From IMG/VR virus record IMGVR_UViG_3300047499_000163: a DNA stretch of 64,000 nucleotides; one strand, given 5' to 3'. The notes under the pieces are model-generated. The model worked only from the letters and a program-made list of their open reading frames with translations, was not told where the DNA came from and made no database searches. This DNA is from an uncultured virus (IMG/VR IMGVR_UViG_3300047499_000163). Taxonomy: Duplodnaviria; Heunggongvirae; Uroviricota; Caudoviricetes. Made by a program: the position numbers and the translations under genes. Positions 17,022 through 28,035 of this stretch are shown here, in pieces. The number at the start of each line of letters is the position of its first letter. Position 1 is the first letter of the stretch.

Positions 17022-17329
17022 CGAGAGATCGGTGCTGTCCCGTTGGCCTCGTCGAGGATTGCTTCGATTTCGCGCATGCGGGCGCGCTCTTCGTCGTCCT
17101 TCTTCTGGCACTCGGCGTAGACGGCATCGAAGATTTCACGGGCTCGGTCCTGGAACCTGTCCAGATTCAGGCCGAATCCCTGCGAAAGGCGGCGCCGGAT
17201 TTCGTTGGACGACAGATGTGACAAAAGAGCTTCTCTACCCTTGTGCGAGTAGACGGCCATGTCTGCCATGGCGAGTGCCATCCAGAGTGCTCGTTCCTCG
17301 TCGCGAATCGGTGGTGTCTTGCGACTCAT
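17018..17329 (-). CDS. Hypothetical protein
   Basis: 103 aa, coupled to its neighbours. Confidence 0.55.
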   Translation of the reverse strand: MSRKTPPIRDEERALWMALAMADMAVYSHKGREALLSHLSSNEIRRRLSQGFGLNLDRFQDRAREIFDAVYAECQKKDDEERARMREIEAILDEANGTAPISR

Positions 17330-17338
17330 GCACTGACC

Positions 17339-17877: not shown

Positions 17878-18585
17878 TCAGCCGAACTTGAGACCGGGCG
17901 CCGAGCGCGTGACGGCCTGGTCGAGAACGGCCTTGAGCGAATCGGGGACGCGCTTGCTCTCCTGCTCGTAGCCCTCGGTCGTCGCGACCTTCGTGGTCGT
18001 GTCGAAGAGATTCTCCATCGAGGTCTCGATCTCGTCGGGCTTGAGCCCGACCTCGGCGAGGATGCCGCGGATCAGCTCCTCGGCGTTCGGCTTGAGCGAC
18101 TTGGTGACCGTCTCGGTGAACAGTCGCGGGAACAGCTCGCCCAGCGCTTCCTTGTTGCCGAGGACGATGTCCTGCTGCACGCTGTACTTGTTGCTGCAGA
18201 TGACGGAGATGTACTGCTTCTCCTTGCCGCCGCCCGGAACGTCGACCTCGTAGGGGACCTTCACCGTCGTGATGTTGGCCTTGAACGTGTCGTTGTAGAG
18301 GCCGCGCTTGGATGAGCCGTATTCGCGAGTTTCGGCCTGCAGGACCTTGAACTCGGCCTCAGCCTTCTCGAGCGCTTCCTTCAGGCCGGCGCATTGGCCC
18401 GCCTTCTCCGCGAACGCCGGATCGAACCCGAGGGTCACGACGTTCTTGGAACCCTTGGCCATCGAAGCGCCGGCGATGGCCGGATCGGTGACCTGCGTGG
18501 AGAGAGCTGCCGCCGCGGCAGCCGGCTTCTTCTGAGAGAGAGCCTTGAGGGCAGACAGCGCGGACGGCTTGCTTTCGGTTGTCAT
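17878..18585 (-). CDS. Hypothetical protein with strong codon bias
   Basis: 235 aa, near-uniform G/C third positions, own promoter and long leader. Confidence 0.75.
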   Translation of the reverse strand: MTTESKPSALSALKALSQKKPAAAAAALSTQVTDPAIAGASMAKGSKNVVTLGFDPAFAEKAGQCAGLKEALEKAEAEFKVLQAETREYGSSKRGLYNDTFKANITTVKVPYEVDVPGGGKEKQYISVICSNKYSVQQDIVLGNKEALGELFPRLFTETVTKSLKPNAEELIRGILAEVGLKPDEIETSMENLFDTTTKVATTEGYEQESKRVPDSLKAVLDQAVTRSAPGLKFG

Positions 18586-23077: not shown

Positions 23078-23223
23078 TACAAAACGCAGGTGCCGACTTG
23101 CCCCGCGTACGCGCCGGCATGGGCAAGATCAAGGACGCCATGATTCGCGAGGAGGACCACTTCGAAGAGAAGATGGCCAATCCCAATGTCGCGCAGGCCG
23201 TAAGGCGCGGAGCGGCGCGCGTA
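23078..23223. promoter_or_regulatory. Cluster of three phage promoter motifs (one minus, two plus)
   Basis: Minus GCAA-N16-TGTA 23078-23101; plus GCAG-N16-CGTA 23086-23109; plus GTAA-N16-CGTA 23200-23223. Confidence 0.65.
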
Positions 23224-23247: not shown

Positions 23248-24225
23248 ATGGGAATGATGGCAGTTCTGGCGGCCCTGGAGAAGGAAGCCGCCGACAAAGG
23301 CATGACACTGGAGGAGCTGGCCGACGCGGCGGCTCAGGAAGAGGTCTCGGGAGCCATGGCACAAGCAGACCAGTCCGACAAGGAGCTGGACCGCGCGAAG
23401 GCGGCAGCCGCCTCGACGCTCCCCGCGCCCGAGAGCGCACCGGAGGTTCCGGTTGCCGAGGAGTCGGCGCAGGAGCCGACCCTCGACGACAGCGCCTTGC
23501 CGGCGATCGACGCGGCGCGTGCCGCCGAGTTGGCCGAGGTGCCCATCCCCGAGGTGCAGTTCGAGATGCCGCCCCAGCAGTACATGAAGAAGGGGCAGCA
23601 CCACACCTTGGTGTTCCAGGGCGTCTGCTCCAACTGCGCGCACTGCGCCATGAAGCTCACCGACGCGGTGTCCATCGAGCGCGGTCTCGGCCCCGTCTGC
23701 AGCAAGCGAGGCTACCTCGAGGACCCGACCGATCCGGACGAGAACCAGGCCATCATCGACCTGGCCGAGTACCCGCAGCTCGTCGAGTTCCTCATGAAGA
23801 ACTACAAGCCGCAGGGCGTCCGCGGCCTGATGAACGGGCTGGTCAAGATCTGCTCGCTCAACCGCCGCTCCCCAGTGCACCCGGCGTGCTGCGACGCCAT
23901 CGAGTCGCTCGGCTACAAGCGTCTCGCGAGCACGCTCCGCGAGAGCCTCGCCGTCATCGAGATCAAGGAGCACGACGACAAGACCTACAACGTGTGGGTC
24001 AAGAAGTCCGAGTTCCAGTGGCAGTGGCTGCGGGACCTGCAGCAGAAGATCCCCGGCACGTACCGCTCGGCGCAGTACAAGGGCATCCTCGTCCCCAAGT
24101 CGGCCAAGCAGATGCTGTGGGCCATCATCCTCGAGCACTACGATGGCCTCTGCGCCAAGGTGCCGGCCGAGGGCGGCGGCAAGAAGACGGTCAAGATCCT
24201 GCCGAAGGTCGCCAAGGCGTCCTAG
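23248..24225 (+). CDS. Protein with an acidic N-terminus and DUF6011-like zinc finger (alternative in-frame start at 23119)
   Basis: CAHCAMKLTDAVSIERGLGPVC motif; GGAGGTG Shine-Dalgarno before the ATG at 23248. Confidence 0.7.
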   Translation: MGMMAVLAALEKEAADKGMTLEELADAAAQEEVSGAMAQADQSDKELDRAKAAAASTLPAPESAPEVPVAEESAQEPTLDDSALPAIDAARAAELAEVPIPEVQFEMPPQQYMKKGQHHTLVFQGVCSNCAHCAMKLTDAVSIERGLGPVCSKRGYLEDPTDPDENQAIIDLAEYPQLVEFLMKNYKPQGVRGLMNGLVKICSLNRRSPVHPACCDAIESLGYKRLASTLRESLAVIEIKEHDDKTYNVWVKKSEFQWQWLRDLQQKIPGTYRSAQYKGILVPKSAKQMLWAIILEHYDGLCAKVPAEGGGKKTVKILPKVAKAS

Positions 24226-24428
24226 CCGCAAGTTACCCTGCGCGGCTGCGCCACCTCCAATTCCGTCGCCGCGGGGTTGGTCTTCGCCCTGGTTCGCTTT
24301 GCGGGCCGGGGCGAAGCCGTATTCGCGTTCGGCGTCCGTCGCCTCCTTCCACGATTGACGAACGACGAACGGGGTGGTTTATTCGTCGTTGCTCGTCGAA
24401 TGTACCGTTCGGCAGGAGGTCAATCGTC

Positions 24429-24866
24429 ATGGATGAAGAGACTGAGTTGAACACCCTTGTGGACCTGGTGAAGGACCACGGTCAGCCGATCTCTTCCCCG
24501 AAGCTGGGGAAGCTTTTCACACAAAAGACCGGCATCACTTACAAAGATGCAGGGATCTACCGCCGTTGCCAGAAGGCAATCGGCAAGGGCAAGCCCCTCA
24601 TCCAGGTCCAGGACAACGGGCAACCGCGGTGGGACTACGCGGGCAGGAACGGAGTCGCCGAGGAGCGAGCAGCACGCCCTGTATCCAACGGCAACGGGCA
24701 AAAGAAGGAACTGACGGACCAGCAGAAAGCCAAGGTCCAAGACACGAAGGCGATGTTCTCACGGATCGTGGAGGCTCTCGAGAGAAACGACATCTCGGAA
24801 GCGTTGTCGTACAAAATCCCAGCCGATGCCCTCCTCGGCCAACTCAAACACCTCATGGAGAACTAG
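24429..24866 (+). CDS. Hypothetical protein, possibly winged-helix
   Basis: AGGAGGT Shine-Dalgarno; ends LKHLMEN*. Confidence 0.6.
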   Translation: MDEETELNTLVDLVKDHGQPISSPKLGKLFTQKTGITYKDAGIYRRCQKAIGKGKPLIQVQDNGQPRWDYAGRNGVAEERAARPVSNGNGQKKELTDQQKAKVQDTKAMFSRIVEALERNDISEALSYKIPADALLGQLKHLMEN

Positions 24867-24868
24867 TC

Positions 24869-25132
24869 ATGGACCGCATCGATCACAAGATGATGGACGC
24901 ACTCGGCGGGAAGAACACCCAATGGCGCGGAGAGCCATGGATTGCTCGCGCCGCAGGCGTCGTGGACGAAGAGGCTCGCAAGCGCCTCGCTGTACTCGAG
25001 CACCACGGTTATGTTCAGCGGAGCAGGGATGGTCTCCGAACAGTGTGGCGCACCACAGCCGCTTCGCTCATGAAGTACCGGCGCGAGCGAGCGGCCATCC
25101 AGACGACGAAGATCCCCGCCGTGGGTACGTAG
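24869..25132 (+). CDS. Small winged-helix-like DNA-binding protein
   Basis: IARAAGVVDEEARKRLAVLEHHGYVQR pattern. Confidence 0.5.
   Translation: MDRIDHKMMDALGGKNTQWRGEPWIARAAGVVDEEARKRLAVLEHHGYVQRSRDGLRTVWRTTAASLMKYRRERAAIQTTKIPAVGT
25108..25131 (+). promoter_or_regulatory. Phage promoter motif GAAG-N16-CGTA in front of the tRNA-like RNA
   Basis: Exact spacing; RNA 5' end 8 nt downstream. Confidence 0.5.
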
Positions 25133-25139
25133 TCCTCGT

Positions 25140-25249
25140 GCCGGCGTCTGGTGGCCAAGAGTTGTAGGTCCCGCAGCGAAGTAACTGTAACCTACGAACG
25201 GTGAAAAGCAGCGGTGCTCTTGGAGAGGGTTCGAGTCCCTCCGCCGGTT
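25140..25249 (+). ncRNA. tRNA-like structured RNA (acceptor stem and T-arm, no D-stem, enlarged anticodon-position domain)
   Basis: GCCGGCG/CGCCGGT 7-bp stem; GAGGG-TTCGAGT-CCCTC T-arm; CCAAGAG/CTCTTGG helix; inner GTAGGT/ACCTAC hairpin. Confidence 0.7.
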
Positions 25250-25258
25250 TCAGGATTT

Positions 25259-25459
25259 ATGCGGCACGACTGGAAAGAGAACTACAATATCGACTGCACG
25301 TCGATAATCTGGTCGTGTCGGCAGTGCGGCGCTCGGTTCGTTGTCATGAAGAACCGGTGCGACTTCCACTCTCCTGACGAGGACGAAGAGCTTCTCGAGA
25401 AGCATTCCATCTCGCTTGATTGCGACGTACAAATCGCCAGGCAGGTGATGGAGTCCTAA
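25259..25459 (+). CDS. Small zinc-finger protein with VMES tag
   Basis: HDW...WSCRQC...CDVQIARQVMES*. Confidence 0.75.
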   Translation: MRHDWKENYNIDCTSIIWSCRQCGARFVVMKNRCDFHSPDEDEELLEKHSISLDCDVQIARQVMES

Positions 25460-25785
25460 GACTGCATCACGTCGGCCACCATGTACTCCTCTCGAGAGCA
25501 CTCCTCGACAAGCTCGTAGTTGAGGACCTTCGGGTCTCCGTGCTCGTCGCACCGGCCGAAGTACATCTTTTCGCCGGGAGCCGGTGTTCCTCCAGCCTCG
25601 TAGGTCTGGTCGCGCTTTGTCTTGAAGAACCGCGTAGCCTTTTGGCGATGCTTCTGTTTCTCGACGTCCCAGCAGTCAGGATGGTTGCACTGAACTACAC
25701 GACCTTCCAGTGCTTCCAGCTCCAGTCCGTCATGAACTTGTGAGCCCACGTCTGCACGACCGGTCCACCGGGCTGAGCCACCCAC
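25456..25785 (-). CDS. Cys/His protein with VMQS tag (start uncertain)
   Basis: CNHPDC...RCDEH...SREEYMVADVMQS*. Confidence 0.55.
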   Translation of the reverse strand: MGGSARWTGRADVGSQVHDGLELEALEGRVVQCNHPDCWDVEKQKHRQKATRFFKTKRDQTYEAGGTPAPGEKMYFGRCDEHGDPKVLNYELVEECSREEYMVADVMQS

Positions 25786-25918
25786 CCTTCGTTGGTGGCG
25801 ATGAGGTCGACCTTCTCCTCACCATCACCGTACGTAAAGGGTGAACGAAGCCAGCCTTCTGGTACTCGTTGAGGGACTTCACCTCGTCATTGGTCCAGGG
25901 CGCGTCGCTTCTTTCCAC

Positions 25919-26533
25919 TTAGCATTCCATCGTGTGCTTGACGAAAGCCAACTCTACCAACTCCCGGATCTCGTCGTCGGAGAGTCCCTGGGAGATGGCG
26001 AACTGGATGTTGTTGCTGAGGGCGGCCTTGACCTTCTTGACGAGGCGCTCCTTGCGAGCCGTCTTGTGCTTGCCGGCTCCTGCGCAGTCGCCGATAGCCT
26101 GGACGGCCGCGCGGTGAAGCTCGTGGATTCTGGAGTTCGAGTTCATGACGCCAAGCTTCTTCAGCTCGGTCATGAGGTCGTCTTCGAAGGCGCCCCAATC
26201 AGAAGAGCGCCCGGTCTCCTTGCGGCACTGCTTCTTGGACCACTGGACGGTGCGGAACACGTCCTGGAAGAAGTTGTGGAGCGAAGGGCCGGACGTCTTC
26301 TTGGCGGCCACCGACTCGGCGTCTTGCACGGTCATCGACAGGTAGCCGAGCCCGTGGGCGCCGTCCGGGTCTGTCCACGCGATCCGGACCTGGACCCGGT
26401 GCTGCGCCCGCGAGGGCGTCGCGGTCTTGACCTCGGCGACCTGGACGCGGTGCGCGAGCAGCGCGGCGTGCCGCTCGGTGACGTTGGATGGGACCAGTAT
26501 GACGTCTTTCGCGGGCTTCTTCTTGGCTGCCAT
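25919..26533 (-). CDS. Hypothetical protein with TMEC tag variant
   Basis: Ends LSDDEIRELVELAFVKHTMEC*. Confidence 0.7.
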   Translation of the reverse strand: MAAKKKPAKDVILVPSNVTERHAALLAHRVQVAEVKTATPSRAQHRVQVRIAWTDPDGAHGLGYLSMTVQDAESVAAKKTSGPSLHNFFQDVFRTVQWSKKQCRKETGRSSDWGAFEDDLMTELKKLGVMNSNSRIHELHRAAVQAIGDCAGAGKHKTARKERLVKKVKAALSNNIQFAISQGLSDDEIRELVELAFVKHTMEC

Positions 26534-27292
26534 CTACGCCTCCATCACCTCGAGTACGCTGGCGTACCGATAGATCTCCTCGTACATCCGCTGCACGACT
26601 CCATCCTCGATGAACCATTGAGGAGAGGTGTTCTGCAAGTCGAGAGTGCGAGCCGTCATCTGAACGAACTTCCCTCCCGATGCTGATTGGGCGTCGCTGA
26701 GGTCGACTCCCTCCCGCACCATCAGGCGCGCGAGCCGCTCGGAGAACAACTTGGCCGACTCCTTGGCCTTCTCGGCAGGAGCCTTGGAGAGGTTGGGGAA
26801 GACGTGAACCGTCTTGTTGTTCGAGTTCTCGATGAACGACAGATGGTTCTTGTTGATGCGGATGGTGCCGAGATGCTGCTCTTCCTCGAAGAACTGGAGA
26901 GTCCCCGCGGGATCCACCTGGCGGGCGACCTGGCCTCTGCAGTAGAGCGGGATCTGAATGCAAGGATGGCCGCTGTACTTGGTGTGCTCGGCCTCCTTGA
27001 AGACGAGCTGCAGGTTGCCAAGCGGTGGCAAGTCGGCGCGCGAGAACGGCTGCCGCTTCTGCAGCATGGCGAATCGCACCGAATGACCCATCTGCCCTCG
27101 TCCGCCGTCGTACCACTGAGCCGATTCCGGGCCTGCCACAGGCGCGCGGCCCTCGAAATAGCCCTGAGTGCGAATGGCGTCGAGGGCGACTTTGGCCTGC
27201 TCCCCGAGCGCGACCATCCTTTCGAGCTGCTCGACAGCCCTATCGCACGCCTCGTCGTCCGAGTGCATGTCCACGCTGAACCCGTGCGGCAT
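26534..27292 (-). CDS. Hypothetical protein with VMEA tag
   Basis: Ends YASVLEVMEA*; CGTA plus GGAGGTG upstream. Confidence 0.7.
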   Translation of the reverse strand: MPHGFSVDMHSDDEACDRAVEQLERMVALGEQAKVALDAIRTQGYFEGRAPVAGPESAQWYDGGRGQMGHSVRFAMLQKRQPFSRADLPPLGNLQLVFKEAEHTKYSGHPCIQIPLYCRGQVARQVDPAGTLQFFEEEQHLGTIRINKNHLSFIENSNNKTVHVFPNLSKAPAEKAKESAKLFSERLARLMVREGVDLSDAQSASGGKFVQMTARTLDLQNTSPQWFIEDGVVQRMYEEIYRYASVLEVMEA

Positions 27293-27322: not shown

Positions 27323-28035
27323 CTATGCACTTGCGCTTTGCGTCACGGGATGCCAGAGCTTCCAGCACTCGACGATCTCGGGCTCGTATCTCTCGAGCCG
27401 ATTGCCGATCTTGTCGGAGTGCTTCATCAGGCGGAACCCGTCGACGAACTTGACCTTGTTCTTTTGGCGCCAGTGGGGCTGCAGGTGGAAGACCTCGACT
27501 CCACGGAACGCGAGATAATCCGAGATCATCGACCGGTGGCAGCGCCAGTATACGGCCTCACAGCACATGAACCCGAGGTCCTCTTTCTTGCCGCGCTCGA
27601 CGAGACGATCGCAGTCTTCGAGGAACTCGGGCAATGTCATGAAGTACGAATAGTCGTACAGCCGACGTTGGTCCACTTCGGACGAATATGCGGCAAGGCG
27701 AGTTGCGAGCTTTCCACGGCGTCGGGGAAGTTTTTGCCGATGCGCTGTTTGGGGAACTTCCCTCGAGCGTAGACGTGCAAGTCGACTCCCTTGGGCTCGA
27801 AGTCCACCGCAAGCCGCTCGTGGCGCCTGTCCCACCCGCCAAGACCTGGCCACCATTCGTAGCCAATCCCGGCCTCGGGAAGCCAGCGCTGCATCTCTCG
27901 GCGCTCGTACTGAGCCCAGCGGCTTTCCGGATGAGACCGGACGTCGATCACGGTCGAGATGCGGCCCTTGAGGCTGGCCGTGAAGGCTTCTTGAGAGTAA
28001 TTCGAGTGTCCGATCGAGAAGAGCGCCACGCTCAC
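27323..28035 (-). pseudogene. DUF488 family protein, frameshifted near 27660
   Basis: FSIGHSN, IDVRSHPES, YEWWPGLGG, then FMCCEAVYWRCHRSMISDYL in another frame. Confidence 0.75.

Follow-up and report, generated by a model that had tools for sequence, protein, structure and literature searches.

An RNA element of 110 nt lies between two small co-oriented genes of an uncultured giant phage associated with moss. It combines an acceptor stem and a T arm with a 7-bp helix that encloses a structured body. The element is a non-alanine mimic of the top half of tRNA and is probably under selection. As the best explanation we tentatively propose that it is a processing signal, used by RNase P and then by RNase Z, in an operon transcript of the phage, like the t-elements of mitochondria. 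The window, i.e. the whole stretch of DNA analysed (64,000 nt), belongs to a virus record of 127,914 bases, which is approximately 51% complete and was found in moss metagenomes. The features of the locus are:

24429..24866, + strand: opening gene of the local cassette, coding for 145 aa; low-confidence models show a winged-helix-like domain at the N terminus
24869..25132, + strand: upstream gene, 87 aa; winged helix-turn-helix (HTH), FaeA-like (E 4.5e-4), with its TAG 7 nt 5' of the element
25140..25249, + strand: tRNA-like element, predicted mature form from G1 to discriminator U73, 110 nt (sequence and folding)
25140..25146, + strand: 5' strand of the acceptor, GCCGGCG, with G1·U72 and C3-G70 and no G3·U70 (sequence and folding)
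25147..25154, + strand: stemless D-linker TCTGGTGG, 8 nt, containing GG (sequence)
25155..25223, + strand: 7-bp helix CCAAGAG/CTCTTGG (strands 25155-25161 and 25217-25223) around a 55-nt body, in the position of tmRNA helix 2 (folding)
25162..25197, + strand: inner hairpin with internal loop, GTAGGT/ACCTAC (25164-25169 and 25190-25195) and GCAG/CTGT, with the 8-nt loop CGAAGTAA (folding)
25225..25241, + strand: canonical T arm GAGGG-TTCGAGT-CCCTC (sequence)
25242..25252, + strand: 3' strand of the acceptor, CGCCGGT (25242-25248), then U73 U74 C75 A76; no CCA and no C74 (sequence)
25252..25255, + strand: AGGA word, weakly Shine-Dalgarno-like, 3 nt 5' of the downstream ATG (sequence)
25259..25459, + strand: downstream gene, 66 aa, with CxxC and a C-terminal VMES tag; its ATG is 9 nt past the discriminator

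Gene setting

The element is located far from the tRNA array of the phage, within a small + strand gene run in the order DUF6011 gene, 145-aa winged-helix-like gene, 87-aa winged-HTH gene, element and 66-aa CxxC protein. It likely reads as part of an operon and would be co-transcribed with its neighbour genes. A promoter of its own, as claimed in the original prediction, was not supported: a sigma-70 scan of 23500-27000 yielded no sites (0.5 expected), and positions 25108-25132 lie inside the upstream ORF. A repeated motif, CGTAY-N8-10-GGAGG, which is likely a phage promoter or leader signal, occurred in 19 loose copies, the nearest on the + strand at 23220 and none upstream of the element. 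This repeated motif (GCGCGTAYCGATCGGTGGAGGTGG) was found just 5' of start codons at 22660-60410 of the window, mostly on the - strand, and also in the relatives L379 and L381. Contigs assembled from two RNA runs covered only 24507-24689 locally, and such a contig gap proves nothing. The region 24700-25800 showed no differences among four DNA runs, two of which are possibly the source of the record.

The downstream gene had been described as a tagged zinc-finger gene. Its VMES tag is real, whereas the zinc finger comes down to the CxxC and the Cys/His spacing; the 66-aa protein had no Pfam match under E 0.01 (best E 0.08). A C-terminal M-[EDQLHN]-[SACDET], mostly VMES and written in varied codons, was present in 42 of 1260 ORFs (at least 40 aa) genome-wide and in the window at 15545-62463. 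Relatives of the downstream protein were found on a 242-kb contig (98% identical) and on two short contigs (86% identical), and the neighbour proteins used as queries returned no loci in IMG/VR. Domain and model searches showed no RNA-binding domain in the neighbour proteins. For the 145-aa protein, an RNA-binding domain of the LOTUS/OST-HTH kind was not supported; its models resemble ordinary winged helices. Elsewhere in the window (27323-28035, - strand), a DUF488 domain extended over two ORFs that overlap in different frames, through either a frameshift or a split of the gene.

Structure of the element

Sequence inspection and folding placed the acceptor, the T arm, the 8-nt linker, the CCAAGAG/CTCTTGG helix with its body of about 55 nt and the GTAGGT...ACCTAC hairpin exactly where the original prediction had them. 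Its statements that a normal anticodon loop and an encoded CCA are lacking were likewise borne out, the acceptor being followed by TTCA. The acceptor consisted of six Watson-Crick pairs and G1·U72, and the 7-bp helix of seven Watson-Crick pairs, with one unpaired A as the connector between this helix and the T arm. All 19 core pairs were intact, and the helix was in exact register. In the predicted fold of the 110-nt RNA, the pair probabilities were 0.83-1.0 for the acceptor, T stem and 7-bp helix (0.97-1.0 for the helix alone), and the inner 55-nt body was well paired. The minimum-energy fold of 25130-25260 was the tRNA-like structure (z = -2.67), and none of 200 shuffles was equally stable. 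In the window, the element alone fitted a loose descriptor built from an acceptor, a linker with GG, a helix of 6 bp and a T arm; 300 dinucleotide-shuffled windows gave one match, both strands included.

The best predicted fold of a 211-nt precursor with 50 nt of extra flank on each side was an alternative one. In folds of 131-140 nt the upstream GTCCT was paired with AGGA, and in the longer precursor AGGA was 75-92% unpaired. The tRNA-like structure would presumably form in vivo, and the GG of the linker likely contacts the T loop at the elbow. The longest complement to the 55-nt body found in the antisense target search was 12-13 nt, which is the chance level.

An ordinary tRNA was rejected, as no cloverleaf with a D arm and a 7-nt anticodon loop was obtained and neither ARAGORN nor RF00005 gave a call. 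A hand-built cloverleaf-like alternative was about 27 kcal worse (-16.9 vs -43.8 kcal/mol), with a D-arm pair probability of 0. A tRNA with an intron or insertion was also rejected: the 55-nt body matched no intron family at E<=10, and on inspection AAGAG-TT-GTA taken as an anticodon arm gave no bulge-helix-bulge. Since ARAGORN and Rfam gave no call in the window at gathering score, the element is neither a tRNA nor a member of a known Rfam family.

Comparison with the tRNAs and tRNA-framed RNAs of the phage

The record contains 51 ARAGORN tRNA calls, which lie outside the window. Only seven of them encode CCA, so its lack in the element is ordinary here. C74 was present in 50 of the 51 calls, where the element has U73-U74; C74 alone is the main block to RNase Z. 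G1·U72 occurred in nine calls, including all four tRNA-Arg calls, and is therefore local style rather than decay. The T arm of the element was identical over 19 nt to that of the phage's tRNA-Leu(CAG) (G000:C1:23727-23745). A 52-nt similarity at G000:C1:18167-18217 lacked a T arm and was treated as chance.

The same record carries, also outside the window, an EF-Tu gene (G000:C1:40970-42139, - strand; E 1.6e-161), located inside the tRNA array, and several non-canonical tRNA-framed RNAs. At G000:C1:29900-31100 (- strand), tandem tRNA-framed RNAs had a 7-bp acceptor and a T arm 104-115 nt apart with CCTCGGAC...CAGYAGWGCYCACAAGC in common. CCTCGGAC was present there in eight copies and CAGYAGWGCYCACAAGC in seven copies in the genome. 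This family matched no Rfam family at gathering score and is possibly more novel than the element. Three further RNAs (G000:C1:10198-10291, 17216-17331 and 18329-18397, - strand) had alanine-type acceptors (GGGGCU, G3·U70, A73) and abnormal or missing anticodon arms, the first of them ending in ACCA; they are better candidates than the element for DS6A-like tmRNA or tRNA-Ala mimics. In addition, a tRNA with a group I intron (G000:C1:39250-39552, - strand; 94 bits) and a tRNA-Arg-like gene with a 181-nt insertion without Rfam match at gathering score (G000:C1:10295-10568, - strand) were detected. In a related megaphage (G003), ARAGORN called a tRNA with a CUA anticodon (L382:1799-1873) near tRNAs with long insertions.

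Search for homologues

The search used patterns derived from the linker and T loop and covered IMG/VR, JGI metagenomes, GTDB and GenBank phages. In IMG/VR, one pattern returned no loci and others returned 120 loci sampled from approximately 1600, 54 loci and 84 loci, with no close homologue among them. GTDB yielded no loci and then seven, with a T arm in none of the seven, and GenBank phages yielded T-arm and chance matches only. A one-sequence model had no match in five cultured or named phage records. The search of JGI metagenomes gave 93 loci (79 distinct) with one candidate, L283.

L283 is located on a 2.2-kb contig of a T7-like phage unrelated to that of the window, 5 nt past the TAG of an 85-aa ORF behind primase/helicase and 63 nt 5' of a DNA polymerase gene. 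In T7, RNase III sites lie in this part of the genome. Among the 79 distinct pattern matches, only L283 had at least six acceptor, four T-stem and five helix pairs in register, and it ranked first of them in an alignment of the inner region, which the patterns did not force (z 2.8, equalled by 1 of 300 shuffles). It differed from the element by eight two-sided pair changes (two in the acceptor, four in the helix, one in the inner region and one in the T stem) and two broken pairs, counted on two sequences only, aligned to the structure, of which L283 had been chosen by its pairing. The inner hairpin of the element and L283 had TCCCG..GCGWAGT in common, a motif defined post hoc, and the identity of the linker TCTGGTGG was forced by the search pattern. 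L283 scored 25 bits on the model vs 23.8 for the next match. Its tRNA-like fold was 3.5 kcal above its own minimum-energy fold (helix probability 0.01; z -0.44), and it keeps C74, unlike the element. On balance, L283 is quite probably a distant homologue.

Three distant relatives of the phage (G001-G003, 46-64% identity), found via neighbouring proteins, lacked the three small genes and the element beside the DUF6011 gene, and the one-sequence model matched none of these three whole records, all of which are fragments and one a bounded record. The element is absent from all three and therefore dispensable or recent.

Several other loci were rejected as homologues. L136/L161, L176/L306 and L257 had CGTCTGGTGGC behind the acceptor in common, and none of them scored as a homologue. 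L136 and L176, in tRNA arrays, kept an anticodon-like hairpin and an ACAGCAA motif; the phage tRNA arrays of L136, L176 and L306 contained many tRNA-framed RNAs with this hairpin and ACAGCAA insert. L257:1491-1568 (- strand) was a tRNA-like element of 78 nt that lacked a D arm; it started with the same CGTCTGGTGGC but had a different body. L343/L300 were tRNA-Gly with an insertion. An unannotated T arm in Stenotrophomonas phage Mendera, a cultured phage, belonged to a tRNA with a long extra arm: a tRNA-like gene with an extra arm of approximately 50 nt between tRNA-Val and tRNA-Met (L406:1408-1528; Mendera 82267-82387). The literature search, whose scope took in few subscription papers, turned up neither this element nor t-elements of phages, and the linker TCTGGTGG had no match in six supplement files of Fremin 2023 (PMC10690425).

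Proposed processing signal and alternative explanations

If the element serves in processing, the cut by host RNase P would fall at G25140 and leave an upstream message ending 7 nt past its stop codon. RNase Z would likely cut after U25249, which would set free the 110-nt RNA and leave the downstream message a leader of 9 nt. With RNase P alone, the folded element would stay on the downstream mRNA as a protective 5' structure. We infer both cuts, and their effect on expression, from several lines of evidence. The 12-bp stack of acceptor and T stem is intact together with the T loop, whereas the element carries neither an anticodon nor marks for aminoacylation. It takes up 110 of the 126 nt that separate the co-oriented genes, and no promoter was found. 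It has U73-U74, where nearly all tRNAs of the phage have C74, and RNase Z acts on CCA-less precursors. The probable homologue L283 is also situated just past a stop codon, at a gene border, and plant mitochondria provide a precedent in their t-elements.

The element keeps the substrate features described for the two enzymes. RNase P measures the stack of T stem and acceptor and needs the T loop, the D loop being apparently dispensable in the account of PMC4919913. RNase Z is described as cutting CCA-less precursors after the discriminator and as blocked by CCA (PMC1874595, PMC4919913). On CCA-less substrates bacterial RNase P is impaired but not abolished, and it cuts them in vivo (PMC1874595); the phage RNAs M3 and C4, along with some mRNAs, are stated to be cut by it as well (PMC11143913). 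Against a processing signal, bacterial RNase P should be slowed by the lack of C74/C75. None of the three distant relatives has the element, the best fold of the 211-nt precursor is an alternative one, and the homology of L283, which has C74 and lies 63 nt from the next gene, is insecure. Of the three functions offered in the original prediction, the RNase P/Z processing signal nevertheless fits the evidence best. A decoy for SmpB was weakened, because G3·U70, A73 and a 13-nt D-loop with UCGAC are missing and because better alanine-type candidates exist elsewhere in the genome, and a decoy for anticodon nucleases is unlikely, because the element has no anticodon loop.

A pure cut signal needs no structured body of 55 nt. 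Because the processing signal leaves this body unexplained, its main rival, in which the released RNA is the product, keeps some probability, although we consider it rather unlikely. After the RNase P/Z cuts and CCA addition, the RNA would act in trans as an uncharged tRNA-shaped decoy or sponge. It might bind a protein reading the elbow or acceptor end, such as a factor for tRNA quality control or an anti-phage enzyme that targets tRNAs, with the 55-nt body possibly serving as the binding module. The well-paired body and the TCCCG..GCGWAGT common with L283 are more than a cut signal needs, and the phage is rich in tRNA-shaped RNAs (51 tRNA calls, EF-Tu and the non-canonical tRNA-framed RNAs). 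Against this, the element belongs to a small operon away from the tRNA array and no promoter was found, anticodon nucleases are poor targets for an RNA without an anticodon loop, and no partner was found (TROVE/Rsr was not in the 51%-complete genome). A wider hypothesis, which we think unlikely, is a mobile family of phage RNA modules common to the megaphage and the T7-like phage. Its tRNA top-half scaffold would allow excision from any operon by host RNase P/Z, and the released RNA would show the inner motif TCCCG..GCGWAGT to a host protein, e.g. an anti-phage tRNA-sensing enzyme. The element would instead be a non-functional or nearly neutral relic, e.g. a rearranged tRNA piece in a recent three-gene insertion, with a lower probability. 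Its absence from all three distant relatives fits a relic, as do the T arm identical to that of a tRNA-Leu of the same genome, TTCA being one change from NCCA, and the lack of a close homologue in IMG/VR, JGI metagenomes, GTDB and GenBank phages by the patterns used. The intact 19 of 19 core pairs, a 7-bp helix in exact register without counterpart in tRNA, G1·U72 as the usual style of the phage (9 of 51 calls) and compensatory changes in the probable homologue L283 speak against a relic.

Two further alternatives were given still less weight. A tag-less tmRNA derivative, by analogy with mycobacteriophage DS6A, might titrate SmpB and damp host trans-translation, which we regard as very unlikely. 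DS6A (JN698994) encodes a domain-only, tag-less tmRNA, as reported in PMC4131195 and PMC11915505, and offers a precedent; the linker of that RNA also contains TGGTGG. The element has the topology of the tRNA-like domain in tmRNA, and tmRNA is its lowest-E Rfam match, but ordinary tRNAs of the phage reach 15-36 bits on the tmRNA model. The DS6A RNA, at 34.7 bits, keeps G3·U70 and A73 as well as a D-loop of 13 nt that ends in UCGAC. The element shows C3-G70, U73 and a linker of 8 nt in which UCGAC is missing; the alanine-acceptor RNAs elsewhere in the genome fit the role better. SmpB was not found in the 51%-complete genome. Least probable of all, the element could stay uncut in the downstream gene's leader as a cis-regulatory tRNA mimic, to which a protein would bind and so gate translation. 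It ends 9 nt 5' of the ATG, and the AGGA word, which is paired with GTCCT in the 131-140-nt folds, would be freed by 5' cleavage. However, AGGA was mostly unpaired (75-92%) in the longer precursor, L283 lies 63 nt from its next gene, which is an unrelated one, and no RNA-binding domain was shown for the neighbours.

If the processing signal is real, phages use tRNA look-alikes as operon punctuation and borrow host RNase P/Z as mitochondria do. The element also shows that a weak score on the tmRNA model does not count as evidence that RNAs of this kind descend from tmRNA. Being small, it lends itself to cleavage tests that do not need the phage, either in vitro or in E. coli. Its importance is limited by a single uncertain homologue and by its being known from sequence and predicted fold.

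Comparison with known systems

The original prediction was right about the architecture of the tmRNA tRNA-like domain (RF00023). Like that domain and the DS6A RNA, the element has an acceptor formed by its terminal ends, a stemless D-loop with GG, a long helix (helix 2) instead of the anticodon arm and a canonical T arm. It is also, as claimed, far shorter than tmRNA (110 nt vs 230-400 nt), and like the DS6A RNA it is short, phage-borne and intergenic. It differs from both in its U73, U74, 8-nt linker and 1-nt connector, and in lacking G3·U70, UCGAC and a tag frame. All three frames of the 55-nt body contained a stop, and neither a tag reading frame nor the pseudoknots were present. The tmRNA model was the lowest-E Rfam match of the element (15 bits, E 6.6e-4; cut-off 47). 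This score carries no weight, because ordinary tRNAs of the phage score as high or higher on the model; tRNAs are described as its commonest false positives by Nawrocki 2025 (PMC11915505). G3·U70 is stated in PMC3968760 to be conserved in all ssrA genes. In shape the element thus resembles the tRNA-like domain, yet it does not qualify as a tmRNA. In print, anticodon-less tRNA mimics of phages are represented by that of DS6A (PMC4131195), and N4 has a 62-nt D-armless fold with ACCA.

Bacterial Y RNAs of the YrlA type, which occur with Rsr/TROVE, are likewise non-tRNAs that carry a tRNA-mimicking T arm and a D-like loop. The ends of YrlA make up the Ro-binding stem rather than an acceptor. The Y RNA model did not match the element at E<=10, and a TROVE/Rsr gene was absent from the 51%-complete genome, whose incompleteness makes this a weak gene test. 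Allo-tRNAs and irregular tRNAs are, as portrayed in PMC5389517, tRNA-framed RNAs of peat and soil communities, some of which are thought to be non-translational. They have a cloverleaf with an anticodon and 8/4 or 9/3 stems, whereas the element is 7/5 and has neither a D stem nor an anticodon arm.

In setting, the element resembles t-elements and mascRNA (RF01684), which have a non-canonical tRNA shape and a conserved T arm and lie at gene borders with RNase P/RNase Z cuts. In plant mitochondria, t-elements direct these cuts to mRNA ends, as described in PMC1920247. The element shows the feature given there, namely a tRNA-like fold that lies at a gene border and has a GGTTCRANYCC T arm. The mascRNA model scored 24.6 bits (cut-off 42.5), covering only the 3' part and in another register. 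The element differs from both in belonging to a bacteriophage and in being known from sequence and predicted fold, and the likeness implies no sequence homology.
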